The position numbers and the translations under genes are program-made. Positions 2,215 to 21,593 of a stretch of 32,000 nt of DNA are shown here, piece after piece. Positions within the stretch are counted from its first letter, which is position 1. Each line of letters starts with the position of its first letter. The notes under the pieces were generated by a model, which made no database searches, had not been told where the DNA came from, and saw only the letters and a program-made list of their open reading frames with translations. The stretch spans positions 30,001 through 62,000 of the forward strand of contig NC_009930.1 of the NCBI RefSeq assembly GCF_000018105.1, in the 5' to 3' direction. This stretch comes from Acaryochloris marina MBIC11017. Its GTDB lineage: Bacteria > Cyanobacteriota > Cyanobacteriia > Thermosynechococcales > Thermosynechococcaceae.

Positions 2215-3360
2215 TATACTGCGGACGACTTGTGACTTAACATTGTGGTAGAGAGATTTGGCACACTGGGAGTATCCCCGCACCTATCCTCCACTCCCAT
2301 GATTAAAATTGATTTCACCGCAGAGGAAATCCAACAACTCAATTACGAACGCTATCATCACCCTCACCCACGGGTGCAGCGACGGATGGAAGTGCTCTAC
2401 TTGAAGAGTCAAGGTCTTTCCCATACCCAGATCTGCCAGCTTTGTCAGATTAGTCGCCCCACTTTAGCCAAAACTCTTCGTCAGTATCAACAAGGAGGGA
2501 TTGAAGGGCTGAAGACCCTTGAATATAAAGGTCAACCGAGTCTACTCAACGCTCATAGCGATAGTGTGAGAGCTTACTTTGAGCAACATCCTCCCCGCAC
2601 CAGTGCAGAAGCTCAAGCGGTCATTGAGCAATTAACAGGCATCAAACGCAGTCCCACCCAAATCAAAGCCTTCCTCAAACGCATCGGTTGTCGTTATCGA
2701 AAAGTGGGGTATGTGCCGGGAAAGTCGAGTCTGCCCGAGAAAATTGAGGAGCAAGAGCAGTTTCGACACACTCGCCTTGAACCCTTATTAGAGGAAGCTC
2801 AACGCCAAGAGCGTCTTGTCTTTTTTGTGGATGCTGCTCACTTTGTTCACCGTGCTTATCTAGGGTTTGTCTGGTGCATCACTCGGATCTTCATCCCTTC
2901 TCCTTCTGGTCGCCAACGTTTCAATGTCCTGGGCGCGCTCGACGCTATCACCAAAGACCTAGTCAGCGTTACCAACCACACCTATATCAATTCTCACAGT
3001 ATGTGCCTGTTACTGGCCAAGCTGGCGCTACTTGACCCAGTCATACCCATCAGCGTGATTTTAGACAATGCGCGATACCAGAAATGTCAGCTTGTAACGG
3101 ACTTTGCCGAGATCGTCGATATTGAGCTGGTCTATCTGCCCTCCTATTCACCCCATTTGAATTTGATTGAGCGACTCTGGCGTTTTGTACGCAAGGAATG
3201 TCTCTATTCAAAGTATTATGCTGATTTTCCCGCCTTCAAAGGGGCCATTCAACAGTGCATCGACCAGTGTAATGGAGAGCATAAGGCGAAACTCACCACC
3301 TTACTATCACTCAAGTTTCAGTCTTTTAAGAAAGTTAATATCTTAGCCGCCTAGAGTATA
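2215..3360 (+). mobile_element. IS630-family insertion sequence, apparently intact
   Basis: Single HTH+DDE transposase ORF. The termini are imperfect inverted repeats: left TATACTGCGGACGACTTGTGACTTAAC (from 2215); reverse complement of the right end TATACTCTAGGCGGCTAAGATATTAAC (ending 3360). The right IR overlaps the transposase stop. The ends sit in TA-rich context, as expected for TA-targeting IS630. The exact boundary is uncertain by a few nt. Confidence 0.6.
2299..3354 (+). CDS. IS630-family transposase (HTH + DDE_3 domain)
   Basis: The track ORF opens at GTG 2245; the first ATG is at 2299 (MIKIDFTAEEIQQLNYERYHH...). The N-terminal winged-helix/HTH (LSHTQICQLCQISRPTLAKTLRQY) is followed by the DDE block (FFVDAAHF..., VILDNARYQKC, LVYLPSYSPHLNLIERLW), which is typical of IS630/Tc1-mariner. 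Confidence 0.85.
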   Translation: MIKIDFTAEEIQQLNYERYHHPHPRVQRRMEVLYLKSQGLSHTQICQLCQISRPTLAKTLRQYQQGGIEGLKTLEYKGQPSLLNAHSDSVRAYFEQHPPRTSAEAQAVIEQLTGIKRSPTQIKAFLKRIGCRYRKVGYVPGKSSLPEKIEEQEQFRHTRLEPLLEEAQRQERLVFFVDAAHFVHRAYLGFVWCITRIFIPSPSGRQRFNVLGALDAITKDLVSVTNHTYINSHSMCLLLAKLALLDPVIPISVILDNARYQKCQLVTDFAEIVDIELVYLPSYSPHLNLIERLWRFVRKECLYSKYYADFPAFKGAIQQCIDQCNGEHKAKLTTLLSLKFQSFKKVNILAA

Positions 3361-5341: not shown

Positions 5342-5647
5342 TCAAGCAGCTTTAGCCCCCACTTCAACTTTCACCTCCAGACCTGCACGGGATAGCATCT
5401 TGACTAATTTATCAATGCTAAATCTCTCAATATCTCCCGTCATCAGGTCACTAATGCGAGGTTGAGTCTCCCCGAAAAATTGAGCTGCCTTTTGTTGGGT
5501 CCATCCTTGAGATTGGATAAAACTCCGCAAGCTCAACATCAGATCAGCCCTAATCTTAAGGTTCTGGGACTCCTCTGCATCAAACCCCAGATCCGCAAAT
5601 ACATTTTGACTGCCTTTCGTCACTGTAAATTCTTCTTGATTCATCAC
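5342..5647 (-). CDS. higA: XRE-family HTH antitoxin (HigA-like)
   Basis: The pattern ...NVFADLGF...NLKIRADLM..., WTQQKAAQFFGETQPRISDLMTG..ERFSIDKLVKML is the typical XRE HTH partner of Gp49/HigB toxins. It lies 3 nt downstream of the toxin gene, in the reversed toxin-first order. Confidence 0.8.
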   Translation of the reverse strand: MMNQEEFTVTKGSQNVFADLGFDAEESQNLKIRADLMLSLRSFIQSQGWTQQKAAQFFGETQPRISDLMTGDIERFSIDKLVKMLSRAGLEVKVEVGAKAA

Positions 5648-5650
5648 TGT

Positions 5651-5989
5651 CTACTCCCTTGACTTTCGGTATTGAAGTAATTGCTGATAACGTCTCTGTC
5701 CAATCTCGATATCTAACTTTGAGGTCTTCTGAGTCTTTTTCTGGAACGCATGAAGGACATACACAGCCTCTGCAAATTTGGCGACATAGAAGACCCGGTA
5801 TGCGTCTTCAGTGCGGATTCGGACTTCCTTAACCCCAGCTCCAACAACAGACATGGACTTGAAATCCGTCGGCTTCTCACCTCCTTGGACAAGCCGAAGC
5901 TGAAACCCTGCTTTGCGTCGTGCGCTTTCTGGAAAATCTGAAATATCTTCTAATGAAGTTCCTATCCAGTTGATGGGCTTGTCCGTCAT
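5651..5989 (-). CDS. higB: RelE/ParE-superfamily toxin of the HigB / phage Gp49-like type
   Basis: The 112-aa sequence (KPINWIGTSLEDISDFPESARRKAGFQLRLVQGGEKPTDFKSM...GVKEVRIRTEDAYRVFYVAKFAEAVYVLHAFQKKTQKT) matches the conserved Gp49/HigB layout. It is paired with the downstream XRE antitoxin. Confidence 0.8.
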   Translation of the reverse strand: MTDKPINWIGTSLEDISDFPESARRKAGFQLRLVQGGEKPTDFKSMSVVGAGVKEVRIRTEDAYRVFYVAKFAEAVYVLHAFQKKTQKTSKLDIEIGQRRYQQLLQYRKSRE

Positions 5990-6359: not shown

Positions 6360-6773
6360 ATGGCCGATATCCCATCTCTTTCTCTCCCACAACTAGAACT
6401 CCTCAGACTTGCTAAAAAACATTCTGTGGAAGAACTTCGGCTTGTCTATGAGTTCCCAGTGCTGGATGATAATGAACTTTCAAGCGGCCATCCACCGTTT
6501 ATCCAAGAATTGATTGATCACCATTTCATTCAGGTGCAAGAGAAAGGAACTTCTTTATGTGCTTCCGAGTTTCAACAAGAAAGCTGGACTGAGTACTGTG
6601 ACGAGATTGACTATCCCAAGCAAACTGATTGGGAGCGATGGAGGCAGGGATTCATTGTCCAACTCAGTGAGGGCTTTGAAAGCCTGATGACTCCAGGAAA
6701 AAGCTTGGGGCAATTCTCTAAGGTATGGATCCGAGAGATTGGCCTTCGAGGGGTTCAGCCAAGTAGCCTGTGA
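6360..6773 (+). CDS. Hypothetical protein
   Basis: 137-aa ORF with normal amino-acid composition. No domain recognised. Confidence 0.4.
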   Translation: MADIPSLSLPQLELLRLAKKHSVEELRLVYEFPVLDDNELSSGHPPFIQELIDHHFIQVQEKGTSLCASEFQQESWTEYCDEIDYPKQTDWERWRQGFIVQLSEGFESLMTPGKSLGQFSKVWIREIGLRGVQPSSL

Positions 6774-6969
6774 GTGAGGCTTGGGGCTGGGATATAGCAC
6801 TAAGCCTCTACATCCTCGTCAGCTTATTTTTCCAAATTCAAGCGGCCTCAATATGTTCCTCTAAAAAATGGCAAATGGCTTAGTGCCTTCTAGAAAGGTA
6901 TACCTTCCCAGCCCACTAAGCCATTTAGAGGTGACTCTAAATATATGTCAATTTCCAATTTGACAGTAT

Positions 6970-7428
6970 CTAATCATCATAGACTCTGCGATTTAACCAG
7001 CGGTCAAGCTTATCTCGAAAATCGCCTCGTTTGTCGCCTCTACGCCAGCGCCAATCATCATTTCGATGTCTGCGATCTCGCCATCGTCCATCCCGCCATC
7101 GCCCATCTCGCCATTGTCCATCTCGCCATCGTCCATCTCGCCATCGTCCATCCCGCCATCGTCCATCTCGCCTTCGCCAACGGCGATCTCTCCAACGACG
7201 ATCTCTCCAACGGTTATCAAACCGATCTCTACGACCTTTACACCGAACACGACCATACCGACGCCAACAGTATCGATTACCTCGACCTCTGCCAGCCACC
7301 AGTGTTTGAGTCTCTTCAAATTTTTCTAGCGGAGTTTCTGAGCTGAATGTTGCAGCTTGAGCAGGGGAAAGAACAGATGTAGCCCCAACCATTAGTGCAG
7401 CAGCCCACATCATATAAGATTTGGCCAT
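6970..7428 (-). CDS. Secreted Arg/Trp-rich tandem-pentapeptide-repeat protein
   Basis: This is the only one of five overlapping ORFs with a canonical Sec signal peptide ([26 protein letters not shown]). The mature part is (R/Q)WRD(G/R) repeated about 11 times, with Trp every 5th residue. It is encoded by the 15-nt tandem array. Confidence 0.55.
7072..7221. repeat. 15-nt tandem repeat array, about 10 units
   Basis: Plus-strand units of TCCATCTCGCCATCG with point variants fill 7072-7176, followed by CCAACGRCGATCTCT-type units to 7221. The period is a multiple of 3, so all frames stay open. Confidence 0.9.
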
Positions 7429-10287: not shown

Positions 10288-10764
10288 TCAATGCCCATGG
10301 CCGTCATCGTGGTCATCATGGTCGTCACCATGTCCGTCAAACGTCTTCGCATCCCAAGCCCAAAGATGGGAAAAGCCATGATCTATGTAGATGATCCGAT
10401 ACCCTTCATCGTTCTTGCCGGACGTGCTGTCGGCCATGATCTCACGAGCAAAAGCGATGTAAACAGGGCCATCCTCCTCCGGTGGAGTTTCAACCACCTT
10501 GTAGCACCAATACTCATTGTTTATGAGTCCACCCACATATTCCATCTCATCATCGTGCCAGTCCACATCAAAGTGGCTGCTGCCTTCATGAGATTCTAAA
10601 TGGTGCCACACAAAAGAAGCGTGACCCTTTTGGGGGTTATTGCCTTGAGATAGGGTGAAGGAACCGATTGAGGGGGCGAGATACCCAAGCACGTGGTCTG
10701 GTGCTTCGAAGTTCGGATCCAGCTCTTTCTCAATGTTGATTTTATGTCCGTGGGGGCCTTTCAT
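10288..10764 (-). CDS. His-rich hypothetical protein with a His/Asp C-terminal tail
   Basis: 158 aa. AGGAG sits 7 nt upstream of the ATG. The tail is GHGDDHDDHDDGHGH, and many internal His residues occur (HGH, WHHLESHEGSSH, WHDDE). Confidence 0.6.
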   Translation of the reverse strand: MKGPHGHKINIEKELDPNFEAPDHVLGYLAPSIGSFTLSQGNNPQKGHASFVWHHLESHEGSSHFDVDWHDDEMEYVGGLINNEYWCYKVVETPPEEDGPVYIAFAREIMADSTSGKNDEGYRIIYIDHGFSHLWAWDAKTFDGHGDDHDDHDDGHGH

Positions 10765-11162: not shown

Positions 11163-11315
11163 TTACATTTCTATAACGCGAACGTCAAGTTGAATTTTGC
11201 CATCAACCCTCCCCAGCTTACATAGGAACTCAGCTTGGTCACAGACAACACCCAAGCCCGCATTTCTACCAATGAAATAGCCTGCAATCAGACCGATAGC
11301 AAAACAGCAAACCAT
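11163..11315 (-). CDS. 50-aa small membrane protein, paralogue copy 1 (not in ORF track)
   Basis: MVCCFAIGLIAGYFIGRNAGLGVVCDQAEFLCKLGRVDGKIQLDVRVIEM*. AAGGGG lies 8 nt upstream of the ATG. It is 29 of 39 identical, with mostly conservative changes, to the copy at 14544-14696. The C-terminus diverges exactly where the repeat ends. Confidence 0.4.
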   Translation of the reverse strand: MVCCFAIGLIAGYFIGRNAGLGVVCDQAEFLCKLGRVDGKIQLDVRVIEM

Positions 11316-11344
11316 CAGGGTCACCCCTTGCCATCGGTCCTGGT

Positions 11345-11460
11345 TCAGCTTGACTTTGAGCCGTTCTGTTCGTGTGAGCCTCGTGCAGTTTCCACGACCT
11401 GATTGAGTATGGTGTCTACCCGCCGATCCGTGACGAGCGGTTCGGGCTGATCGTCATTCC
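11345..11460 (-). pseudogene. 3' remnant of a paralogue of the 210-aa gene at 14738-15370
   Basis: It reads QPEPLVTDRRVDTILNQVVETARGSHEQNG, compared with QPEPLVTDQQVDDILDQVVENARHSREPNG in the intact gene. The stop is mutated (TAA to TCA). Homology ends abruptly at 11460. Confidence 0.5.
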
Positions 11461-11567
11461 TTAACTACCTCCACACTATCCCTCACGGGTTTGATCGGCC
11501 CACAGAAAAAGCATGGCGAGATGCAGCCCATAACTTCAAGAAGCATGTTGAAGCCTTGGAGCAGTAA
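11461..11567 (+). pseudogene. Possible 3' remnant of a paralogue of the gene at 8951-9643
   Basis: It reads ...HGFDRPTEKAWRDAAHNFKKHVEALEQ*, compared with ...GAFEWHTAKAWSTARYNIDQYLQSSQHQAA*. It is followed by the same terminator type as that gene. The similarity is weak. Confidence 0.3.
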
Positions 11568-11712: not shown

Positions 11713-13689
11713 TTAGTTGTTGTTCTGAAGTGACTGGAGATTCATCCGGGCAAAATGTTCAAGCAACATCCGATGGATAAAGATATAACCACCACCAACT
11801 TTTTGTAGAAAAAGACGCTCAACAGCATAATCTAGGAAGCGGGAATAGTTCCAGGGAATATAACCCATACGGTAAAGCATAAAGCGAAGAGTAAAATGTT
11901 GAAGACAAGCAGCACCACCACCATACAGTCCGCCGATCATTCCAAAAATTGAGAAACCGATCAACCCAATGGGTAGCCAAAATTCAAATCCACCGATCAG
12001 TCCAAAAGCTATCCCGCCGATTAGCCCAAAGAATAGCCCAAAAATGAGTGTATTGCGAGCAGTCATCCACAGTCCCTGATTTGCTTTAAATTTCTTTTGA
12101 AATGATACTTCTGGACCTCTGAATCCACTAATAAGCCAGTAAAGCAACCAATAGAGTAACCAATAAATTAGTCCAAAACTCAGCCCAAAATATAGTCCAC
12201 TAGTCAGTCCAATAATCAGTCCAATAATCAGCCCTAACAGTGAAGCATTCACTGCTACTTTCCGAGAAGTCCTCAACGACTCAACTGTTCGTATATCTCT
12301 TAAAAATCCAATAACTATGCTAGGCAACAACCCTATAAATAGTGCAAGATACGACCCAAAAATCAACCCCAGATACGAGCCCAACATTAGGCCACCTATC
12401 AGCCCAAAAACCAGCATAAAAACCAGCATAACCATCAGTCCACTAGCCAACTGATATCTAGTTCTTTGAGGTTTTGTTTGGAGCCAATTTGGCTGCAATC
12501 GCTCAATCAAAAAGACTACTTGAGAATGCTGAACCATTCGTTGAGATAACCAAATTAACCACCGCCTTGATTGTGGTTGGAGATACTTCAGTGTAGTTCC
12601 CCGTCGTTTGAACATGCGTTGAATATAGGTATCAAACAGTTGCTGATGAAAAGCGTCTGAAGCAATTGGCTGAGAAAAGTCCTTCCATCCTGAGTCTTGA
12701 TAGGAGAGACTCATAATGCTCAATATCAAAGGCGAGGAGGCAAACGCTTTAATTTCAGAGTTCTGACTGAGCATTGATCTCAAATTCGCCAATGAATCTC
12801 CAGACCGTTCTAGATAATCATCAATTTGCTGGAGAGTTAATGGCTGAACGTAAATGGCACTTCGCAAACTTAACTCCTCAGTAAGAGCTTCGTAGTCGCG
12901 AATACGGCTACAAACAACCATCTCAGTTCGGCCATGAGTTTGGATGAATTGATTTAGAGCCTTTACACAGGTATTCCGATGTTGAGCATCAACTTCATCG
13001 AGTCCATCCAGCAACAAGATTAATTGCTCTTCTTCGATCCAGGCTTTTCCCAATGACTTAGAAACGGTATAGGTCTCATAGAGTTCCTGTACTAACCAGT
13101 CCTCGATGGACTTTCGCTGTCTAGCCCAAGACGACAGATTTACTACCACTGGTAACGGCTGGCTCAGATCCTTTGATGTTCGAGCAAGAAGGCTTTCTGC
13201 TAGCTTCAGTAAGGTTACTGTCTTCCCTGCACCAGGCTCTCCTAGTATCAGTAAGGTGCGTCCTGCTCCGATGTTTTCAAATACATCTGCGGCTGATGTG
13301 CCATTAGGCAAAACATTTATAGTCTCGGAAGAGATTTCCTTGACTCCTGCTAGAGGACTATGAACATATTCACTTCGTTCTTCTAATCCAAGTTCAATTA
13401 AGACTCGGGTATGTAGTGAGTTTGATAAGACCCCATCAATCCAGAACTGTTGGACCTTACTTAGCAGAACCTGACGCCATCTATACTCATCTTGTCTAAG
13501 AGGCTTTGTTGTGCTCAGAGGAGTTTGAGGAACCTGAACAGTACCATATACATTGACAACCCCGACCTTTTGAATCTGAGTTAATTCCAGATCTCCTCCT
13601 GAAATGCCTCCAATCTGGACATCTTTTAGAACACTATCCGAAATATTTAAACTCTTCTCAGCCCCCTGGTTAGGTTGTTTATTCATCAC
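11713..13689 (-). CDS. NACHT-family STAND NTPase with a multi-TM glycine-zipper C-terminal region
   Basis: Walker A is GEPGAGKT (aa 150-157) and Walker B is LILLLDGLDEV. The NACHT core continues with MVVCSRIRDYE... About 8 hydrophobic GxxxG-rich helices span aa 410-620. The conserved tail is VGGGYIFIHRMLLEHFA. The first codon is GTG 13689, with an ATG at 13686. Confidence 0.85.
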   Translation of the reverse strand: MMNKQPNQGAEKSLNISDSVLKDVQIGGISGGDLELTQIQKVGVVNVYGTVQVPQTPLSTTKPLRQDEYRWRQVLLSKVQQFWIDGVLSNSLHTRVLIELGLEERSEYVHSPLAGVKEISSETINVLPNGTSAADVFENIGAGRTLLILGEPGAGKTVTLLKLAESLLARTSKDLSQPLPVVVNLSSWARQRKSIEDWLVQELYETYTVSKSLGKAWIEEEQLILLLDGLDEVDAQHRNTCVKALNQFIQTHGRTEMVVCSRIRDYEALTEELSLRSAIYVQPLTLQQIDDYLERSGDSLANLRSMLSQNSEIKAFASSPLILSIMSLSYQDSGWKDFSQPIASDAFHQQLFDTYIQRMFKRRGTTLKYLQPQSRRWLIWLSQRMVQHSQVVFLIERLQPNWLQTKPQRTRYQLASGLMVMLVFMLVFGLIGGLMLGSYLGLIFGSYLALFIGLLPSIVIGFLRDIRTVESLRTSRKVAVNASLLGLIIGLIIGLTSGLYFGLSFGLIYWLLYWLLYWLISGFRGPEVSFQKKFKANQGLWMTARNTLIFGLFFGLIGGIAFGLIGGFEFWLPIGLIGFSIFGMIGGLYGGGAACLQHFTLRFMLYRMGYIPWNYSRFLDYAVERLFLQKVGGGYIFIHRMLLEHFARMNLQSLQNNN

Positions 13690-13699
13690 TAGTTAGGTT

Positions 13700-14134
13700 T
13701 TATAGAAAGAAACCAGTAGCAACCCCTAGCCAGGGAGTGATTTTTTCAACAATCGGTTTGACTTTGCTCCAAAGGCTGGAACCTGCTGCTACCGTTTCAC
13801 CTGCTTCTTTAAGTACCGTAGTGGCCTTTTTAAGGCTTTTTGCAGCATAGTCTTTGTCTGGTTTTTTTGCTTGAACTTCTTCCTTAGCAGTTTCTAGGTG
13901 TCGAAGTGCTTTACTAGCGCCGCTTTTTGGTAGCTCTGCACCTTGCAATAAGTCTTCCAATTGAGTAATGAGGCCCACGACATCAGCCTTTGTCAGTTGA
14001 GCTTCCATCCCATCCGTCCCAATTTGCTGAGTTTGGTTCACAGTCTGATCCTGCCCAGCTATTCCACCTATCTGGACATTAGAGTTTTGACCACCACTGA
14101 TATTGATAGATTGAGGAAGATTTTCTTCTGACAT
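13700..14134 (-). CDS. Small partner protein: N-terminal G/N/Q-rich motif, helical body, C-terminal hydrophobic anchor
   Basis: The 144-aa ORF ends 10 nt upstream of the NACHT start on the same strand. Its aa 9-39 (SINISGGQNSNVQIGGIAGQDQTVNQTQQIG) align without gaps to NACHT aa 13-43. The C-terminus ITPWLGVATGFFL is hydrophobic. Confidence 0.65.
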   Translation of the reverse strand: MSEENLPQSINISGGQNSNVQIGGIAGQDQTVNQTQQIGTDGMEAQLTKADVVGLITQLEDLLQGAELPKSGASKALRHLETAKEEVQAKKPDKDYAAKSLKKATTVLKEAGETVAAGSSLWSKVKPIVEKITPWLGVATGFFL

Positions 14135-14405
14135 ATCTGTAGTTGGAATTTTAATTATGTACCCTTTAAATTGTCAGTCCTTTCACTAGATGTTATAGTT
14201 CTCTTCATTAAAATTTGAGATTGAGAGACATGATTCAAAGACAATGAGCAAGTGAAAAACGCATTCATTACTCTAGAGTCAGCTAATCCTAGTTAAGCTG
14301 CTCTAGCAGCTCTCTTGGAATACTATTGGTGTCGTTCAATCATCGATGAGATAAGTGCACAATCACCGTCTGATTTAATAATTTACTTAACCTCAATAAT
14401 CAGCA

Positions 14406-14543: not shown

Positions 14544-14696
14544 TCACTCTGCCCTTTTCGGCCTCAGTCGATAAACATTGCCATCAACCCTCCCCAGCTC
14601 ACACAATGGTGCAGCTTGGTCACAGACCACCCCCAAGCCCACATTCCTGCCGATGAAATAGCCCACCACTAGCCCAACGACAAGGCAGCAAACCAT
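14544..14696 (-). CDS. 50-aa small membrane protein, paralogue copy 2 (not in ORF track)
   Basis: MVCCLVVGLVVGYFIGRNVGLGVVCDQAAPLCELGRVDGNVYRLRPKRAE*. AAGGGG lies 8 nt upstream of the ATG. It sits directly downstream of the 210-aa gene. It is conserved at protein level with copy 1, although the DNA has diverged. Confidence 0.45.
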   Translation of the reverse strand: MVCCLVVGLVVGYFIGRNVGLGVVCDQAAPLCELGRVDGNVYRLRPKRAE

Positions 14697-14737
14697 CAGG
14701 GTCACCCCTTGCCATCGGTCCCGATTCAGTCTGACCT

Positions 14738-15370
14738 TTAGCCGTTCGGTTCGCGTGAATGTCGTGCGTTCTCCACAACCTGATCGAGGATGTCGTCTAC
14801 CTGCTGATCCGTGACGAGAGGTTCGGGCTGATAGTCGTTTCCCAGCTTCCCCAGGCCATCGTTTAGTCCCCGGTAGAATGCCCCATCTACAACCTTGGCC
14901 GCTAGTTCCTGGTTATGTTGAATTCTGCCTTCCATCCCTTGGGCAATTTGCAAGCCCGCATCATAGGACCGTTGTGCTGGAATTGATAGGTTGTGTGCTG
15001 GATTGTTACCCGTATGACTGCCTGCATCAGTGCCTGTATGGCTACCCACATCGTTACCTGCAACCATATCGCCTTGCTGCACGGAAGTTAATGCGGAACT
15101 CTCTTGCTCATAGGCTGCATTCACACTCTCTTTGCGCTCCTCCCAAACTTGGCTCAATGCATCATAGTCTGTGATTTCCCCACTATCGACCCAGCTACGA
15201 ACAATGCCGATGCAGTATGCGGTCTGTTGCTTGAATTTTGTTCCATTGGGTTTTAGCCCCATTGCCTTGAGGGTGTTTGCTAGCTCCTCTTCTGAATCTT
15301 CAATGCCGTTGAAAAACTGCTCCAAGAGTTGTGTCCGGGATACTGCATCGTTACTGGATTTCGTCGTCAT
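14738..15370 (-). CDS. Hypothetical protein (210 aa), second gene of the accessory operon divergent from the relaxase
   Basis: Clean ORF whose start overlaps the upstream gene by 20 nt. It contains an internal GSHTGTDAGSHTGN repeat. No domain recognised. Confidence 0.6.
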   Translation of the reverse strand: MTTKSSNDAVSRTQLLEQFFNGIEDSEEELANTLKAMGLKPNGTKFKQQTAYCIGIVRSWVDSGEITDYDALSQVWEERKESVNAAYEQESSALTSVQQGDMVAGNDVGSHTGTDAGSHTGNNPAHNLSIPAQRSYDAGLQIAQGMEGRIQHNQELAAKVVDGAFYRGLNDGLGKLGNDYQPEPLVTDQQVDDILDQVVENARHSREPNG

Positions 15371-15746
15371 CGTCTATAATCTCCGCACTAATTTGTTGCA
15401 CTGATGGTGTGGCCTTGATTGCCCCGTTTGAGTCTACGGTTCTACCTGGATGGCCTCTTTTTCTAGCCTCCAGCTTTGCCCGGTTCTCTGCCTTCTTCCT
15501 TGCCTTAGTGATGTCTCGAAAGTACTGGCTCAGTGTCTGGTCGTTAATATCGATGCCATTTTTTTCCAACACCTGGGCTATCGTGCCAAATGTATGACCG
15601 TCATCTAGAAGTGATGCAATATCCTCGTACATTTCCTCGATGGCAATCCTACGGCTGATGTCCTCGGATTCTTTCGGTGGGGGTACATTCTGCAATGCCT
15701 GCCTGACATCGGTGAGGATGCTTCGTTTTAACTTTTGTTTTGCCAT
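15351..15746 (-). CDS. Putative HTH DNA-binding protein (relaxosome or partition accessory candidate)
   Basis: The preferred start is ATG 15746 (MAKQKLKRSILTDVRQAL...), preceded by GGAGGAG. The HTH-like segment is GHTFGTIAQVLEKNGIDINDQTLSQYFRDI. A basic helix and an acidic tail follow. It is divergent from the relaxase across the repeat region. Confidence 0.6.
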   Translation of the reverse strand: MAKQKLKRSILTDVRQALQNVPPPKESEDISRRIAIEEMYEDIASLLDDGHTFGTIAQVLEKNGIDINDQTLSQYFRDITKARKKAENRAKLEARKRGHPGRTVDSNGAIKATPSVQQISAEIIDDDDEIQ

Positions 15747-15791
15747 GACTCCTCCATGATTTCTATCGCTATGAGAGTCTACGGAACTACC

Positions 15792-15899
15792 TGTGTTGAT
15801 GCCTGTGTTGATGCCTGTGTTGATGCCTGTGTTGATGCCTGTGTTGATGCCTGTGTTGATGCCTGTATTCATGCCTGGGTCCGTGCCTGTGGTCTTGCT
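15792..15899. repeat. 12-bp tandem repeat: 6 perfect and 3 degenerate units
   Basis: TGTGTTGATGCC occurs 6 times (15792-15863), then TGTATTCATGCC, TGGGTCCGTGCC and TGTGGTCTTGCT. Further degenerate TGCCTGTG(G/T) copies extend to about 16020. Confidence 0.9.
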
Positions 15900-16540
15900 T
15901 GGAAGTTATACGGAGGGAGTCTTGGGAACTGCCTGTGGCTATGCCTGTGGTCATTCTCTGGAGATTCTATGGAAACTGTCTGGGGTTATGCCTGTGTTGG
16001 TGCCTGTGGTTGTACCAGTGTTGGTATCGGGGTTCATTCTCGGAAGTTCCGTATGCTCAAGTGTGGGGGATACCTGAAGGAAGCTTTATTTATTACATGA
16101 CAGGAATCATGATGAGAACTTTTTCACTGCCTGGTGCTGTGCTGGGGTGGGAACATGACGGGTGCTTTTTCGCAGATGGTTTCATTGCATGGTCACTGCC
16201 TTGTTCAATGCCTCATCCAATGCATGGGCTGTTGTGGGGGGAATATACGATGAATACTTTTTTGCAGCTTCTGGGACTGCACGATGGGAATATGACTGGG
16301 GCTTTTGCAATGCTTGGGTCACTGCCTGGGCTGTGGTGTACGGGAAGTCTGTCGGGATGTATGGGCGAGGACTTGTTCGGTGCTTTTTTCGTGATGGGAC
16401 GGGGACTTTTTCGTTGATGTGTTCACTGCATGGTGCTGTTGTGTCGGTGGAGTATGGCGAGGAATTATGGCGAGTGCTGGGGCGGCGCTTTTTTCACGGT
16501 GGGTTGGGTGCTTTTTACACTGCATGATGCTTATGCCTCT
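15900..16540. promoter_or_regulatory. G+T-skewed, repeat-dense non-coding region (candidate oriT or origin region)
   Basis: The intergenic region lies between divergent genes. The plus strand is almost devoid of A-runs and rich in G/T. There are 8 dispersed copies of an RSNRCTTTT(T)(T) motif and two copies of TTCACTGCMTGGTGCTGT (16123-16140 and 16422-16439). Its ORFs are composition artefacts. Confidence 0.45.
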
Positions 16541-16761: not shown

Positions 16762-18735
16762 ATGATTTCCAACTCAAAAGTTTCAGGGCGAGGATTAGGG
16801 CATTACCACGCACGTGAGGACGGGCAGGAAGCACCAGGCCATTGGATAGGTCAGGGGGCAAAGGAACTTGGCTTGAATGGAGAAGTCAAACGAGCAGACT
16901 TAGAGGCAGTGGCCCATGGAACTGCACCGAATGGCATGAGGCTAAAGGCCAAACGCTCTCAATGGAGACAAGGCAGTTATCGTAATGGTCATCGTGCAGG
17001 TACGGATGCCACCTTCAGTCCACCAAAGTCCGTATCTATCATCGGGTTAGTGGGCGGGGACAAAAGAGTGATCGAAGCCCATGAACATGCAGTACTAGAC
17101 ACATTGAAGGAGATAGAAGAAACCTGTTCAATTGCCAAGATACGAACGGGTGGCATTCGTAGAAACGAAGTGACGGGCAAACTGATTATCGCCAAGTTTG
17201 ATCACAGGACGACTCGACCGAACGATCAGGGTATCCCCATGCCACAGATCCATACACACAGCCTGATATTCAACTCGACAAAGTGCAAGGATGGCAAGTG
17301 GCGTAGCTTGGAGAACTGGAAGTTCTTCAGGACGGATAAAAAGCGATTGCGAAGGCACTATATCAACGGGTTAGGAGAAAGACTCAAAGAGATAGGCTAT
17401 CGAATTAAATCCGAGCGTGATGGACTTCACTTCCAGGTAGAGGGCATAACGAGAAGCCAGGAACTGGCCTACTCTGAACGGACCAAAGAAATAGAACGAG
17501 AACTGGGTGAAAGTGCCAATGGGGTCAGATACAAGAAAGGCAGATTCGCGGCATTGAAGACGAGAAACCCAAAAGTACCCTTTGAGCATGAACGGGTGCA
17601 TAAACAATGGAAGGAGATGGCATATCGGGAAGGCATTGCCTTTGATAGAGTCCCTGGTTTAGTCCGTACACCTAAGGAGATACCCTTACCGACACGAGTC
17701 AGACTTGAACTCAAGTGTCTACAAATCTCTCACCGCATCAAAGCTCAAGTAAGCAGAGTGCATGAGGTCTGGGATAAAACACATGGCAAGGTCGATATCA
17801 GTCATTACAGTGATGCTGACTTGATGAAGTTACTTCAACCGAAACATCTCAGTGATAAACACTGGAATGAATTGGTGGTTGAGAGCAGCATCGAACCTGC
17901 AATCGCCAGTGCATCCTTTGAGACAGTTCCAGGTGAAGATGCCGTTGAATTGGTCTTGGGTAAGAAACTGGAGTCTCTGGGGGGCTATGCCCAGCAATAC
18001 GTCACCAAATCAGTCGAAGGTTTGTTGGATAGCTACAAGCATCTAGAGGATGGCGGCTTATGGTGTCCAGGCAGTGGAGAGTATGGGCAGCTCAAACCAG
18101 AATCCCCCAGGAAGGACGAGAAGGGCAAGACGATTAAATATGAGAATCCTCCAGGGGTTCCCTTGGGGGTGATGCTGCCTGAAGGACCGGGGATTGATTG
18201 GGATGAGATTCGGCGCAACGTCAATGTTCCCGTGGGGATTACGGAGGGGAAGAAGAAGGCGGCGAGTGCATCATCAAGGGGGCTGAATACGATTGCTCTG
18301 TCTGGGATGAATGGAGGGCTAAAGAATGGGGACTTGAGGGACGACTTGAAGGGATTTGACTGGAAGGGCCGCAAGGTCTACCTCGTGTTGGATAAGGATC
18401 CGAGTCATAAGCTGAAGACACTCCGGGATGGGGCAAGGGAGCTGTATAAGCTGGGAGCGATGCTGGATTACTATGGGGCGGATGTGGTGATCGGGACGAT
18501 TCCCGGCAAGCTCAAGGAGAAGGTGGGGCTGGATGACCACTTCTCCAAGGGAAGGACATTGGCCGATCTGAGGTGGCGGTCGGTGGATGATTTTGGGCTG
18601 AACTCTCCGTATCTGACTCAGAAGTACCGTAACCATAACAAGGAACGGATGGAGCGGGGGTATAGCGCCTATGACAATCCCATCGTGAGAGAGGATGGGA
18701 CGAGGAATGATCTGGATTTTGGGTTAGGGCGGTGA
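16762..18735 (+). CDS. MOBF/TrwC-type conjugative relaxase domain fused to a C-terminal Toprim (DUF3854-like) domain
   Basis: N-terminal relaxase hallmarks: GHYHARED...GHWIGQGAKELGLNGEV; HRAGTDATFSPPKSVSIIGLVGGDKRVIEAHEHAV; and the His triad FDHRTTRPNDQGIPMPQIHTHSLIFN. The C-terminal part (about aa 480-600) has a Toprim-like acidic pattern: VGITEGKKKA ... KVYLVLDKDPS ... VGLDDHF. No helicase P-loop is visible. Confidence 0.85.
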   Translation: MISNSKVSGRGLGHYHAREDGQEAPGHWIGQGAKELGLNGEVKRADLEAVAHGTAPNGMRLKAKRSQWRQGSYRNGHRAGTDATFSPPKSVSIIGLVGGDKRVIEAHEHAVLDTLKEIEETCSIAKIRTGGIRRNEVTGKLIIAKFDHRTTRPNDQGIPMPQIHTHSLIFNSTKCKDGKWRSLENWKFFRTDKKRLRRHYINGLGERLKEIGYRIKSERDGLHFQVEGITRSQELAYSERTKEIERELGESANGVRYKKGRFAALKTRNPKVPFEHERVHKQWKEMAYREGIAFDRVPGLVRTPKEIPLPTRVRLELKCLQISHRIKAQVSRVHEVWDKTHGKVDISHYSDADLMKLLQPKHLSDKHWNELVVESSIEPAIASASFETVPGEDAVELVLGKKLESLGGYAQQYVTKSVEGLLDSYKHLEDGGLWCPGSGEYGQLKPESPRKDEKGKTIKYENPPGVPLGVMLPEGPGIDWDEIRRNVNVPVGITEGKKKAASASSRGLNTIALSGMNGGLKNGDLRDDLKGFDWKGRKVYLVLDKDPSHKLKTLRDGARELYKLGAMLDYYGADVVIGTIPGKLKEKVGLDDHFSKGRTLADLRWRSVDDFGLNSPYLTQKYRNHNKERMERGYSAYDNPIVREDGTRNDLDFGLGR

Positions 18736-19597: not shown

Positions 19598-19936
19598 CTA
19601 CTTCCCCGTCCGCTTCGGAGCATATCGCCAGCCCCCATGCAGCAGCCAAGTGCGATATTCTCGCTCCTTTCTTTCAGCCTCCCTCTTAGCCTGCACCTCC
19701 GACGTATTCAAACACCAATCACTCAACAGTGGGGCATACTTCGCTGTCTTCTTGATGCAGCTTTTCTTCGTCCGCATCCCGAGCTTGTACTCAAAGGCTG
19801 CTTGAATGCCCTCACCGCTATATGTCACGACAATTATGGGGATGACCAGCATCAAGGTATAGGTCACGATTTGGGCGTAGATACCAAAAATTGGATTGCA
19901 GGAGATTACAAAGTATTCATATCTTCTATAGCTCAT
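19598..19936 (-). CDS. Small membrane protein overlapping the 3' end of the T4CP gene
   Basis: The 112-aa ORF starts 11 nt before the T4CP stop. Hydrophobic core: IFGIYAQIVTYTLMLVIPIIVV. The C-terminus is basic. Confidence 0.4.
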   Translation of the reverse strand: MSYRRYEYFVISCNPIFGIYAQIVTYTLMLVIPIIVVTYSGEGIQAAFEYKLGMRTKKSCIKKTAKYAPLLSDWCLNTSEVQAKREAERKEREYRTWLLHGGWRYAPKRTGK

Positions 19937-21593
19937 CGTCTTCAGACACCTCTTTCTTTGCGAGGGGTAACATTTCAGCGGCGTATTTCGTTCTCAACCG
20001 AATGTCTTCTTGAGTGTACGGTTTAGATCGACTCGCCGAGATCAGCTCTGGCCGCATATGGGTTTTCCATCGTTGCTCCGATAGCTGAATGATTCTCTGG
20101 TTCTTCTCAGGGACTCGGATCCGACGCTTGACGGGGATAAATGCCTCCGTCTTCGTCTCAAATCCAGGTGACACCATCAATGCTGTCCCTTGGGGCATCC
20201 GATTGATCTCCGTGGCCTCTAACGCCAATTTCACCTTGACCTGATCCGAGACATTACTAGAGCTACCACCCTTGTTTCTCCCTCTAGACTTCAGGGTGTA
20301 ATCCACCTCAATATCCCCCGTCCACTTCGCCATCTGATGAGCAACGTTGATGTTGTTGGGGTTCATAAAGGCTTTAGTCGGTGAACCCGTATAGATAATC
20401 TCTGCCCCTTCTTTGCCATATCTTTCAATCAACTGGTGAACCGACTGAAAGCCTAAGATGCCACAGAACCCATCCTCTCTCCCTTCACTCAGCCAGTTCT
20501 TGATTTTGGGCAGGGTCAGGGCTGGCAACTCATCACAGAAAAAGGCCAGGGGTGTTTCCCTCGGTTGGGTGAGATTAAGCTCAATGACAGCATGAGCGAA
20601 CATGCCGATGGAAGGCGACAGCACCTCTTTGTAGGCTCGGTTGAGACCAATAATCAGCATTTGCTTTGGCCCCACATCGAGGGGGACCGTTGTTTTCCCG
20701 ATAATTGAGGGCAGAAACTCTAGTGCCGTCATCTTGTCTAGAAGCTGGAGACAGGTGGACAGGAGAGCCGTAAACTGTCTAGCGTTGCGTTGGGCCGCAA
20801 TCACTTGCCCAAACATGGCAAAGATGGAGGGGGGAATCTGGTCTCGGTTGTCTTTCAGTCGTTGGGGCAGATCATCGAGAGACAGCATGGCTCTCAAGGT
20901 GAGGATATCGGCATACTTCCAGGTCTTAATCAGGCACAGTCCCGCCGCTAAAGTCTGGGTACTGGCATCGTCCCAGAACTTATCCCCTTCACTTTGAACC
21001 TTGGACTGCACCATATTGAGCTTGGCGACCTTGATGATTTCTTCCGCTCGGATGGTATCGATGGGGGACCGTAGTAAATCAACGGGATTAAGGGTGCCCG
21101 TCTCTGGGAAGGTGGGAGCTAAGACTCCGACCTCATACCCACACCGTTTGGCATAGTCGGCAATCCTGGCCGTCTGTTTGGGGTATTTGAAATCGACCAT
21201 CACACAGCCCCATCCCTGAAAGACCACAGAGAGCATGAACTGATTGAAGAAGGTGAAGGATTTACCGCTGTCCGGTCCACCCTCGACCAAGATTCCCGGT
21301 AATACCCGTCGAAACCAGATGGTGTCTTTGGATTCTGGGTCACCCAGCCAGAGAACGGACTTGTTTAAAGTGGTGCCGAGTTCTTTGATGCCTTGTCTCC
21401 TAGCTCGGTCCAAAATGGCTTGGTCTCCGATACCTCCCTTCGCTAGTTTCTTCTTCTTGCCCTGGTAGTTTTTGGCAATGACGGCAACAAGGACTAGAAA
21501 GCCAAGCAGGATAAAGTCCGGGGCATTCTGTCTAAACCATTTCGATTCAAAGAAGGTGGGTTGTTGGGTCGTGGTATTGGCATTGGTATACAT
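19926..21593 (-). CDS. Type IV coupling protein (TraG/VirD4/TraD-like conjugative ATPase)
   Basis: An N-terminal TM helix (FILLGFLVLVAVIA) is followed by Walker A (VEGGPDSGKSFT) and Walker B (LAFFCDELPAL). The gene has T4CP-like length and sits on the same backbone as the relaxase. Confidence 0.8.
   Translation of the reverse strand: MYTNANTTTQQPTFFESKWFRQNAPDFILLGFLVLVAVIAKNYQGKKKKLAKGGIGDQAILDRARRQGIKELGTTLNKSVLWLGDPESKDTIWFRRVLPGILVEGGPDSGKSFTFFNQFMLSVVFQGWGCVMVDFKYPKQTARIADYAKRCGYEVGVLAPTFPETGTLNPVDLLRSPIDTIRAEEIIKVAKLNMVQSKVQSEGDKFWDDASTQTLAAGLCLIKTWKYADILTLRAMLSLDDLPQRLKDNRDQIPPSIFAMFGQVIAAQRNARQFTALLSTCLQLLDKMTALEFLPSIIGKTTVPLDVGPKQMLIIGLNRAYKEVLSPSIGMFAHAVIELNLTQPRETPLAFFCDELPALTLPKIKNWLSEGREDGFCGILGFQSVHQLIERYGKEGAEIIYTGSPTKAFMNPNNINVAHQMAKWTGDIEVDYTLKSRGRNKGGSSSNVSDQVKVKLALEATEINRMPQGTALMVSPGFETKTEAFIPVKRRIRVPEKNQRIIQLSEQRWKTHMRPELISASRSKPYTQEDIRLRTKYAAEMLPLAKKEVSEDDEL

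Follow-up and report, generated by a model that had tools for sequence, protein, structure and literature searches.

Do two neighboring genes on an Acaryochloris plasmid, whose products have little in common beyond a short motif at their N termini, encode a receptor and an effector that communicate through that motif? Fungi, animals, and bacteria share, as a conserved immune principle, amyloid signaling from NLRs to effectors of cell death, and the original prediction was that a NACHT NTPase and the small protein encoded beside it form such a pair. We have examined this prediction in the 32,000-nucleotide stretch of DNA that contains the genes (the window) and among their homologues. We conclude that the pair is most likely an instance of NLR/effector amyloid signaling, in which the effector carries the tag at the other end than in the cases so far described.

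The gene pair and its shared motif

The pair is plasmid-borne and compact, with two genes on one strand (-) within 2.4 kb. The open reading frames are present as first described, co-oriented and 10 nt apart (Table 1). Codon 2 of the NACHT frame is an ATG (13686), and initiation there would give a 13-nt spacer, the commonest spacing in orthologous loci. No promoter-like site was found between the partner and NACHT genes; the site upstream of the partner is a match to consensus only, and promoter-like sites are no more numerous in the region than shuffling would lead one to expect. We consider it fairly probable that the two genes form a single operon, in which a receptor and an executioner would talk to each other via a shared N-terminal motif of ~31 residues.

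Two copies of a direct repeat, 80% identical and spaced 3381 nt apart, flank the pair. The homologous site in plasmid pREC4 of A. marina MBIC10699 holds a different NACHT gene. The mobile setting ascribed to the locus is borne out by a TrwC relaxase, a TraG/TraD coupling protein, and IS630-like, ISL3, and Mu-like transposases in the window, and the toxin-antitoxin modules said to lie nearby are represented there by a Gp49/HTH_37 pair.

Table 1. Coordinates of the features of the locus (positions in the window)
Feature	Position	Strand	Sequence	Remarks
Direct repeat, copy 1	11197..11469	+		273 nt; downstream of NACHT gene, flanks pair
NACHT-TM receptor gene	11713..13689	-		658 aa, GTG start
Conserved receptor C-terminal tail	11740..11868	-	PWNYSRFLDYAVERLFLQKVGGGYIFIHRMLLEHFA	aa 608-650; modelled as helix, beta-hairpin, helix; mean pairwise identity 0.59
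Hypervariable six-helix hydrophobic region	11869..12474	-		aa 406-607; from hydropathy and AlphaFold2; presumed sensor
NACHT nucleotide-binding domain	12805..13260	-		aa 144-295; PF05729 E 8.5e-11; Walker A GEPGAGKT, Walker B LLLDGLDE
Receptor-side motif	13561..13653	-	SLNISDSVLKDVQIGGISGGDLELTQIQKVG	NACHT aa 13-43; mean pairwise identity 0.55 across 18 receptor homologues
Intergenic spacer	13690..13699	-		10 nt; 13 nt if NACHT starts at ATG 13686
Partner/effector gene	13700..14134	-		144 aa, ATG start; matches a hypothetical protein of Acaryochloris marina at 100% identity
Partner hydrophobic C-terminal tail	13703..13741	-	ITPWLGVATGFFL	13 residues, conserved
Partner helical domain	13727..13990	-		aa 49-136; four-helix bundle in AlphaFold2 model
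Partner-side motif	14018..14110	-	SINISGGQNSNVQIGGIAGQDQTVNQTQQIG	partner aa 9-39
Promoter-like site	14148..14177	-	CTGACA + 18-nt spacer + TAAAAT	14 nt upstream of partner ATG; consensus match only
Direct repeat, copy 2	14578..14850	+		upstream of partner gene, flanks pair

The likeness between the two N termini, on which the prediction was built, was recovered in full: the 31-residue segments can be aligned without gaps, and 15 of the 31 residues are identical, VQIGGI included. BLASTP with composition-based statistics gives the motif pair an E value of 2e-6, and in 2000 shuffles of the 60-residue N termini the best 31-mer averaged 7.4 identities and reached 12 at most (p ≤ 5e-4). The remainder of the two proteins is unrelated, as had been claimed, the next BLASTP segment having an E value of 0.027. 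At the nucleotide level the motif copies are 52% identical and use the same codon at only 5 of the 15 identical residues, so that neither recent gene conversion nor an RNA element explains the likeness; the pattern suggests selection at the protein level. The consensus core can be written [S/N]-I-S-G-x(5)-V-Q-I-G-G-phi-A-G-R-D-x(4)-Q-x-Q; positions Q21, G24, and D29 are invariant.

The receptor and its small partner

The assignment of the larger protein as a NACHT NTPase is secure, with Pfam PF05729 scoring 42.4 bits (cutoff 26.7) and the best Foldseek matches being NLRP2/5, NOD2, NLRP3, and NLRC4 (E 9e-6 to 1e-4). The description of this NLR as membrane-embedded likewise agrees with both hydropathy and the AlphaFold2 model, which place six long hydrophobic helices between residues 406 and 607 (406-436, 441-461, 476-501, 503-524, 539-566, and 571-607 in the model). 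Among homologues this transmembrane region has a mean pairwise identity of only 0.17 and ranges in length from 154 to 375 residues, whereas the motif, the nucleotide-binding domain, and the C-terminal tail have identities of 0.55-0.59. Its variability beside the conservation of the other parts points to a sensor-like role, and we presume that it stands in for the TPR, WD, or LRR sensor usually present. The conserved tail that follows may, judging from its modelled fold, be the end of a STAND winged-helix domain that the transmembrane region interrupts. Pfam recognizes no effector domain in the receptor besides the membrane region. The protein also matches the PADLOC candidate defense family PDC-S60.

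The small partner belongs to a family of 127 clusters at 90% identity, with lengths of around 144 residues, in which all members with a named source are cyanobacterial and no Pfam domain was found. The AlphaFold2 model, built from a 20-sequence alignment, places its helices at residues 49-65, 70-87, 94-112, and 116-136, with pLDDT values of 82-91 over most of the domain. Foldseek finds no match to this fold in the PDB at E ≤ 0.001, MLKL appearing only at rank 45 (E 4.6). The PADLOC profile PDC-M14B aligns with residues 14-132 at E 4.2e-10, in a match that covers only positions 148-262 of the 267 in the profile; we found no literature on PDC-M14.

Across the family the motif and the C-terminal tail are the most conserved parts, residues P134, W135, L136, G137, V138, and A139 being nearly invariant. 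The partner had been credited with a C-terminal hydrophobic anchor. Its tail is indeed hydrophobic and conserved, but it cannot be shown to be a membrane anchor, the tail being 13 residues long and the best 19-residue Kyte-Doolittle mean 0.8, below the 1.6 taken to mark a transmembrane helix. The tail-anchored ElaB/YqjD/DUF883 proteins, whose name JGI gives to a homologue (P0060), were rejected as relatives given so short a tail, and DUF883 is absent from the top 25 Pfam families by members matched when 20 partner members were scanned. A helical executioner of the Bell, HeLo, or MLKL type was set aside on the Foldseek result and because the hydrophobic element lies at the C terminus rather than the N terminus; Pfam HeLo matched one of 20 family members, at E 0.058.

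Relation to known amyloid signaling systems

The motif has the composition and length of BASS-type motifs, which are rich in Q, N, G, V, and I, poor in K, P, and L, and ~25-40 residues long. The fraction of Q+N+G+V+I is 0.55 and that of K+P+L 0.11, compared with 0.44 and 0.09 in a sample of BASS motifs, whereas the remainder of both proteins has 0.22-0.27 and 0.22-0.31, respectively. In both AlphaFold2 monomer models the motif is disordered, with pLDDT < 50 over residues 1-43 of the partner and 1-44 of the NACHT protein.

The profile comparison called for by the original prediction, against BASS1-10, HET-s, and sigma, assigned the motif to none of these families. Of 175 published BASS motifs scored with the motif HMM, 5 of the 36 BASS1 sequences and none from the other families exceeded the 0.1% decoy threshold of 8.5 bits. 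Membership of BASS1-10 was rejected, as the best score (12.6 bits, BASS1) lies within the range of shuffled decoys, which reach 15.1. In hhalign comparisons the probability was 35% for BASS1, over 10 columns, and < 4% for the other families; this 10-column AGRD core is the sole part of the motif that resembles BASS1. Pfam models of RHIM, HET-s, and sigma gave no match at E ≤ 1. The V-Q-I-G tetrad is identical to cores of the RHIM type, for example (G)VQ(I/V)G in members of BASS3, but a RHIM, PP, or BASS3 core was discarded as an identification, the leading G being absent, Pfam RHIM giving no match, and BASS3 scoring at most 7.1 bits, below the decoy threshold.

Among the closest parallels are the Bell/NLR pairs of BASS1-10. 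These too are adjacent collinear genes, commonly ≤ 10 nt apart compared with 10 (or 13) nt here; in the published distribution the spacing is ≤ 10 bp for 57% of collinear pairs, and the collinear order with a very short spacer that marks amyloid signaling pairs is present at this locus. Both combine a short G/N/Q/V/I-rich motif at the N terminus of the NLR with a small (~140-residue) helical protein, both occur in cyanobacteria, and in both the motif is also carried by TIR and CHAT effectors. The identity within our pair (~48%) falls inside the 43-56% range of BASS pairs that cross-seed (bioRxiv 10.1101/2020.01.06.895854). There are also differences. The effector motif is N-terminal here (residues 9-39 of 144) and C-terminal there; the helical domain of the partner has no detectable similarity to Bell, and its hydrophobic element is C-terminal whereas that of Bell is N-terminal; and the variable region of the receptor is membrane-embedded, whereas Bell-associated NLRs carry TPR or WD repeats. 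Acaryochloris is also unicellular, unlike most BASS hosts, the reported pairs coming mainly from multicellular bacteria. The screen of Dyrka et al. examined only the C termini of Bell proteins (bioRxiv 10.1101/2020.01.06.895854) and for that reason would have missed the pair.

In the NWD2/HET-S system of Podospora anserina and in the fungal sigma and PP clusters, the N-terminal motif of the NLR matches, as here, that of the adjacent gene product, and in those systems it templates it (PMC3321046, PMC5485727). The effectors are likewise small helical proteins with a terminal hydrophobic element, but the motif is C-terminal in HET-S, SesA, SesB, and HELLP, and our motif, from a bacterial host and a membrane-embedded receptor, has no sequence relation to HET-s, sigma, or PP. 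Experimental precedent in bacteria is provided by Bab/Agp of Escherichia coli (BASS11), an antiphage abortive-infection system that operates by amyloid signaling (bioRxiv 10.1101/2024.11.07.622273). Like our pair, it consists of two genes on a mobile element and has a small helical effector, and the BASS11 motif is also seen with TIR, CHAT, NACHT, and NB-ARC domains, as ours is, but the motif of Bab is C-terminal. The atypical geometry pointed out at the start, with the motif N-terminal in both proteins, is thus a genuine peculiarity, as the effector-side motif is C-terminal in every case described in the literature. As for the receptor, a NACHT module followed by transmembrane segments is an architecture that Kibby et al. 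already list as a category of its own, and the passages searched in their report make no mention of amyloid or of a neighbor-shared motif (bioRxiv 10.1101/2022.07.19.500537). Set beside that class, our receptor family has a conserved segment of ~43 residues after the transmembrane region that, from its model, may resemble the end of a winged-helix domain.

The motif could instead be a non-amyloid adaptor that works by ordinary heteromeric binding, for example by beta-strand augmentation in a defined oligomer, and that would resemble Death-fold or EAD adaptors in function, without templated polymerization. We regard this as possible, although on the unlikely side. The motif lies outside the validated amyloid families BASS1-10, RHIM, HET-s, and sigma, AlphaFold2 gives it no structure, and the linkage, modular swaps, and length matching described below would fit any homotypic adaptor equally. 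Its G/N/Q/V/I-rich, K/P/L-poor composition, short strands punctuated by glycine, and disorder in the monomer nevertheless resemble BASS and fungal amyloid motifs rather than a folded adaptor, for which 31 residues would in any case be short as an autonomous fold, and in one receptor (locus L010) the motif is present twice, as pseudo-repeats in tandem that recall HET-s-type solenoids.

Carriers of the motif and their exchange

Among 1.84 billion representative proteins, 64 matched the motif profile at E ≤ 1e-3. About 58 are genuine, almost always within residues 1-50; the other 6 are artefacts from large repeat proteins, with weak scores summed over short matches. Conserved adjacency in other cyanobacteria, which the pairing hypothesis led one to expect, was found in 24 of 26 informative cyanobacterial loci reached through the small protein, where a motif-bearing gene adjoins it; in the two loci without such a neighbor the partner motifs are degenerate. 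The loci come from Tolypothrix, Brasilonema, Trichormus, Chlorogloeopsis, Leptolyngbyaceae, Nodosilinea, Spirulina, cyanobacterial MAGs, and metagenome contigs. The widespread, unlinked tag lacking covariation that was named beforehand as speaking against coupling is therefore not what this search encountered, and at the level of sequence the motif is rare and specific, not a generic tag.

The motifs within a locus also tend to match. The core is 18 residues long in 25 loci and 15 in 5, and the length class of the partner agrees with that of its neighbor in 28 of 30 (Fisher 4e-5; kinship ignored). Smith-Waterman similarity averages 77.3 within loci and 65.1 between them (22 pairs; permutation p 5e-5; kinship ignored), and matching persists in long-variant loci alone (p 0.007). 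The proposed covariation of partner and NLR motifs is thus detectable, as a modest signal. The pair in the window ranks 12 of 22 in motif similarity, and in two loci (L028 and L030) motif indels are not mirrored in the other partner.

On the receptor side the motif is carried by NACHT-TM, NB-ARC-TPR, and single-pass membrane proteins, and on the effector side by the small helical protein, a TIR protein, and TIR- or CHAT-helical fusions. The partner is paired with an NB-ARC+TPR receptor in L022; in L024 and L025 it is paired with a single-TM protein that lacks an NTPase. Protein P0117 of L033 bears the motif at the N terminus of a TIR_2 protein directly upstream of a motif-NACHT-TM gene; in L036 a CHAT-motif-helical fusion precedes a motif-NACHT gene, and P0084 is a TIR_2-motif-helical fusion. 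The motif need not be N-terminal, since the TIR and CHAT fusions carry it internally. Judged by these arrangements, it is a modular element by which receptors of different types are linked to different kinds of effector.

These exchanges bear on a further reading, in which the membrane-embedded NACHT protein is itself the effector and the small protein a regulator, inhibitor, or scaffold that docks on its N-terminal motif. The receptor is already in the membrane and has no other recognizable effector domain, and the partner has no recognizable toxic domain. We nonetheless think this reading clearly improbable, because sister loci place TIR_2 upstream of the same receptor family and fuse CHAT and TIR to the partner, because the partner also pairs with NB-ARC-TPR and non-NTPase membrane proteins that lack the six-helix region, and because one partner can serve two tandem receptors (L003, L004, L010, and L018). 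That the likeness arose by chance or low complexity, or marks a generic N-terminal signal, degron, or translational element without coupling, is very improbable indeed: the region is compositionally biased and six large repeat proteins score weakly on the profile, but the BLASTP E value, the shuffles that never exceed 12 of 31 identities, the ~58 genuine carriers in 1.84e9 representatives, linkage in 24/26 loci, the internal motifs of the TIR and CHAT fusions, and the differing codons at conserved residues all argue against it.

Motif-coupled NLR/effector signaling thus remains the preferred reading. The coupling itself, as originally proposed, is favored by the rarity of the motif, the adjacency of its carriers, their swaps, and the within-locus matching; only the tail of the partner, too short for a transmembrane helix, can no longer be called a demonstrable membrane anchor. 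The amyloid templating, trigger, membrane action, and defense role are what we infer in the following scheme. A membrane-associated cue, most plausibly phage infection, would release autoinhibition and allow the NACHT modules to oligomerize. The disordered N-terminal motifs thereby brought together may fold into a cross-beta nucleus of the beta-arch or beta-solenoid type, which would template the matching motif of the small protein. Refolding of its N terminus would free the four-helix domain and hydrophobic tail, which would then probably act on the membrane, so that the infected cell stops growing or dies. In its fullest form, the proposal is that the motif defines a previously unclassified bacterial amyloid signaling family, set apart from BASS1-10 and working N terminus to N terminus, which couples membrane-embedded NACHT receptors (in sister loci also NB-ARC-TPR sensors and membrane sensors that are not NTPases) to small helical executioners of a new class, hydrophobic at their C-terminal tail; we judge this evenly balanced between right and wrong.

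Published genome screens have sought such motifs at effector C termini only, mostly on Bell or HeLo-type domains. If the proposal is correct, an N-terminal effector tag, a new helical effector, and a sensor made of a membrane-helix bundle would mean that existing screens undercount these systems. Amyloid templating would then not be bound to a C-terminal effector motif, and bacterial NLRs would be able to read membrane events through it. The family would offer a compact system in which to study both how a membrane cue leads to NLR oligomerization and the polarity of amyloid tags, with natural swaps of the effector (helical domain, TIR, and CHAT) on the same receptor family providing built-in controls.

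The gene pair and its plasmid setting

The preferred reading of the locus is that of a receptor/effector module like NWD2/HET-S, Bell/BASS or Bab/Agp, with a small protein (the partner) as the proposed effector and an adjacent NACHT protein as the proposed receptor. Both open reading frames lie on the minus strand, co-oriented and 10 nt apart, as originally noted. The NACHT frame opens with GTG-ATG, and a start at the ATG gives a 13-nt spacer, as in most orthologous loci. Since a promoter-like site lies 14 nt upstream of the partner ATG and none was found between the two genes, a single operon is the simplest reading. The partner is 100% identical to a hypothetical protein of Acaryochloris marina.

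Coordinates of the gene pair and of the surrounding plasmid features
Feature	Position	Strand	Remark
Partner ORF	13700-14134	-	144 aa; first gene of pair
NACHT ORF	11713-13689	-	658 aa; second gene, 10 nt after partner ORF
Direct repeat, 273 nt, 80% identity	11197-11469 and 14578-14850		brackets gene pair
Gp49/HigB-like toxin	5651-5989	-	toxin-antitoxin pair with HTH_37
HTH_37 antitoxin	5342-5647	-	toxin-antitoxin pair with Gp49/HigB-like toxin
TrwC relaxase with DUF3854	16762-18735
TraG/TraD coupling protein	19926-21593
IS630-like DDE_3 transposase	2245-3354
Mu-like transposase	22647-24383
ISL3 transposase	24846-26090

The window is a conjugative-plasmid backbone; the relaxase, the coupling protein, three transposases and the Gp49/HTH_37 pair agree with the mobile setting of toxin-antitoxin modules and IS elements proposed for it. 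Each copy of the direct repeat holds a 53-aa ORF (11163-11324 and 14544-14705; 'MTLMVCC…GYFIGRN.GLGVVCDQ'). Beside the same ORF at the homologous site of plasmid pREC4 of A. marina MBIC10699 lies another NACHT gene, which lacks the motif, so that the site behaves as, and on this comparison may well be, a hotspot for the exchange of NLR cassettes. Elsewhere in the window, a 12-nt tandem repeat (15761-15908, with weaker copies at 15950-16037) encodes (NTGI)n at the N terminus of a 173-aa ORF (15351-15872, minus strand). A 620-aa ORF (166-2028, minus strand) contains a TPS (two-partner secretion) domain (E 8e-54) and looks like a short exoprotein of the filamentous-haemagglutinin type, and a 158-aa ORF (10288-10764, minus strand) without a Pfam match has a His/Asp-rich tail, …GHGDDHDDHDDGHGH.

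The two proteins and their common motif

The motif on which the original prediction was founded is confirmed: residues 9-39 of the partner align without gaps to residues 13-43 of the NACHT protein, with 15 of 31 positions identical. For the two proteins BLASTP reports E 2e-6 under composition-based statistics, and in 2000 shuffles of both 60-residue N termini no 31-mer match had more than 12 identities. The coding stretches are only 52% identical as DNA, and their codons agree at just 5 of 15 conserved residues; the similarity has therefore been kept at the protein level, and recent gene conversion or a common RNA element is ruled out as its source. The motif is rich in Q+N+G+V+I (0.55, versus 0.22-0.27 in the rest of the two proteins) and poor in K+P+L (0.11 versus 0.22-0.31), with glycines punctuating short beta-prone stretches (SINIS-GG-QNSNVQI-GG-IAG...). 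Partner positions Q21, G24 and D29 are invariant. The motif is disordered in the AlphaFold2 monomer models of both proteins, as a prion-forming region would be expected to be while still soluble.

That the large protein is a NACHT NTPase, as had been proposed, is confirmed by its profile (Pfam PF05729, 42.4 bits; cutoff 26.7), its Walker A (GEPGAGKT) and Walker B (LLLDGLDE) motifs and its fold, the top Foldseek matches of the AlphaFold2 model being NLRP2/5, NOD2, NLRP3 and NLRC4. Six long hydrophobic helices at residues 406-607, found both by hydropathy and in the AlphaFold2 model, support the suggestion that this NLR is membrane-embedded. A NACHT protein ending in a transmembrane C-terminal region is a recognized architectural class (bioRxiv 10.1101/2022.07.19.500537). 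Among receptors of the family, sequence varies far more in the hydrophobic region than elsewhere (mean pairwise identity 0.17, length 154 to 375 aa), a pattern that would be expected of a diversifying sensor; identities are 0.55-0.59 for the motif, the nucleotide-binding domain and the C-terminal tail. This conserved tail, …FLQKVGGGYIFIHRMLLEHFA, is modeled as helix, beta-hairpin, helix. From this predicted secondary structure and general STAND architecture, we infer that it may be the end of a STAND winged-helix domain into which the helix bundle is inserted. In a BLASTP comparison with the pREC4 NACHT protein the tail was not aligned to the winged-helix 'FSHxxxQEF' motif, and a PDB sequence search with the NACHT protein returned nothing at E <= 0.01.

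Residues 49-136 of the partner are predicted by AlphaFold2, from a 20-sequence alignment, to form a four-helix bundle (pLDDT mostly 82-91), followed by a hydrophobic tail. This tail, ITPWLGVATGFFL, is almost invariant across the family. At 13 residues, it is too short for a canonical transmembrane helix, and the C-terminal hydrophobic anchor originally proposed falls short in this respect. A Foldseek search of the model against the PDB gave nothing specific (best E 0.45, generic bundles), and a Pfam scan of 20 family members gave no significant match. Kinship with Bell, HeLo or MLKL proteins was rejected, no significant fold or profile match being found, as was kinship with DUF883/ElaB, which appears in one JGI annotation; it has no Pfam or NCBIfam support, and the tail is too short. 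The PADLOC candidate defense family PDC-M14B matches partner residues 14-132 (E 4e-10) over the C-terminal 115 model positions only, and no literature on this family was found.

Distribution and modular use of the motif

A first search with the motif profile (45 aa) yielded just 13 short fragments, without architectures, and was replaced by an exhaustive one in which a HMMER profile was run against 1.84 billion representative proteins, giving 64 proteins at E <= 1e-3. Six large repeat proteins (P0110, P0115, P0120, P0123, P0126 and P0132) were considered as possible beta-helix relatives and discarded: each has 7-10 short matched stretches confined to profile positions 13-34, and the two that were fetched, P0115 and P0123, are unrelated repeat proteins in which many short matches, repeated along the sequence, add up to the score. 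In the remaining matches the motif lies, with few exceptions, within the first ~50 residues. At 90% identity the partner family falls into about 127 clusters, with lengths near 144 aa; no member is annotated, and all those with a source name are cyanobacterial.

When loci were fetched from genomes and metagenomes via the partner and scanned in six frames, a second motif-bearing gene adjoined it in 24 of the 26 with usable flanks, usually 13 nt downstream on the same strand. The adjacency that was to be checked in other cyanobacterial genomes is thus conserved. Both loci without such a neighbor (L013 and L015) have a degenerate partner motif, and one receptor without a partner (P0109, in L031) has a degenerate motif of its own. 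With 64 matches in all, this linkage and the nature of its exceptions argue against a widespread tag on unlinked proteins.

Matching between partner and neighbor extends to the form of the motif. Its core, measured from phi-Q-phi to Q-x-Q, has 18 residues in 25 loci and 15 residues in five (the QIGQAGRDLxQxQ type), and the length class agrees in 28 of 30 loci (Fisher p 4e-5), including two (L024 and L025) in which the neighbor is not an NLR; L028 and L030 are the exceptions. Smith-Waterman scores between the N termini average 77.3 within and 65.1 between loci (permutation p 5e-5), or 80.3 and 76.8 once the short-variant loci are removed (p 0.007), a signal that is real but modest, as these tests ignore kinship and the number of independent events is therefore small. 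The window pair ranks 12th of 22 in within-locus similarity. Matching of the same kind has been reported for fungal sigma clusters (PMC3321046). The covariation sought between the two motifs stands for length class and overall similarity but not for single positions: at the candidates (I/Q/M after GG; I/F in VQ[IF]G) it is unconvincing, most receptors having I where partners have Q.

Most neighbors belong to one receptor family, consisting of motif, helical segment, NACHT domain, hypervariable hydrophobic region and conserved ~43-aa tail. Other proteins also carry the motif. It heads an NB-ARC+TPR protein adjoining the partner in L022 and single-pass membrane proteins without an NTPase in L024 and L025. 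On the effector side, L033 encodes a motif-TIR_2 protein (P0117) immediately upstream of a motif-NACHT-TM gene, CHAT-motif-helical fusions either precede a motif-NACHT gene (P0112) or face one on the opposite strand (L005), and P0084 is a TIR_2-motif-helical fusion. In four loci (L003, L004, L010 and L018) a single partner precedes two receptors in tandem. These swaps and tandem arrangements argue that the partner holds an effector rather than a regulator position. Combinatorial use of this sort is known for BASS motifs (bioRxiv 10.1101/2020.01.06.895854) and for BASS11 (bioRxiv 10.1101/2024.11.07.622273), and the present motif recombines with receptors and effectors in like manner.

Several loci depart from these arrangements. 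The first of the two tandem receptors of L010, from a Trichormus MAG (6457-7353), carries the short motif twice (…GQIGQAGRDVNQLRLIFG…SQIGQSGRDLHQVQFIFG…), and these receptor-side pseudo-repeats recall the two repeats of HET-s. Motif-only receptor N termini directly downstream of the partner gene in L005 (~6499) and L034 (~3034) look like remains of receptors that were lost or replaced. A 583-aa protein (P0125, and L023 at ~3214 on the minus strand) has the motif near its N terminus and a body without Pfam or PADLOC match; in L023 its gene is divergent from an otherwise 'orphan' partner gene, and it may be another receptor or effector class. Three metagenomic proteins are deletion chimeras that hint at recombination or decay within these operons: P0076, on 12 contigs, joins the partner motif to the last ~20 receptor residues, P0095 joins the N-terminal half of the partner to the receptor from 'LSQPLP' on, and P0106 is a receptor lacking everything between the helical segment and the tail. 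The two partner copies among IS elements on plasmid CP071722 of Acaryochloris sp. 'Moss Beach' (L027), each followed by a fragmented receptor, are decaying paralogous modules.

Relation to known systems and proposed mechanism

In composition the motif resembles a published sample of 175 BASS1-10 motifs (Q+N+G+V+I 0.44, K+P+L 0.09). Under its HMM the highest scores go to BASS1 members (7-12.6 bits), with shuffled decoys reaching 15.1 bits; the 0.1% shuffled-decoy threshold is passed by five of 36 BASS1 sequences and by no sequence of another family, and hhalign gives BASS1 35% probability over a 10-column 'AGRDxxhxQ' core. On these profile comparisons, which covered the ten families, the motif does not belong to BASS1-10. 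Its V-Q-I-G tetrad recalls BASS3, but the leading glycine is absent and BASS3 sequences fail to match; the tetrad is likewise all that is held in common with RHIM, again without the leading glycine or a Pfam RHIM match. All described systems have the effector-side motif at the C terminus (bioRxiv 10.1101/2020.01.06.895854; PMC3321046), whereas that of the partner is N-terminal, and fungal SesB is ruled out as a precedent because SesA and SesB share a C-terminal region. The family is absent from the BASS screen because only Bell protein C termini were covered there (bioRxiv 10.1101/2020.01.06.895854).

The principle of amyloid signaling is already known and was recently proven experimentally in E. 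coli (bioRxiv 10.1101/2024.11.07.622273). No description was found in the literature searched of the motif family, the partner effector domain, the N-terminal placement, the use of such a motif with membrane-embedded and non-NTPase sensors, or the core string QIGGIAG. The finding is not categorically new; the motif family, effector and geometry are new to that literature.

That the pair follows a receptor-effector coupling logic is, on the comparative data, very probable; its role may lie in defense or allorecognition. Amyloid templating is the favored means of coupling, with some confidence, given the composition, length and disorder of the motif, length-class matching and analogy. The main rival, in which the motif is a homotypic adaptor of a non-amyloid kind, is rather unlikely. 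There is little reason to regard the partner as a regulator, a role disfavored by the TIR and CHAT swaps, and the statistics exclude chance or a generic tag as the source of the motif likeness, leaving that explanation a very small probability. Under amyloid templating, the membrane-embedded NACHT protein would oligomerize once activated, and its N-terminal motifs would thereby be nucleated into a cross-beta fold. The matching motif of the partner would be converted on this template, and the partner's helical domain and hydrophobic tail would then be free to act, the membrane being their probable target.
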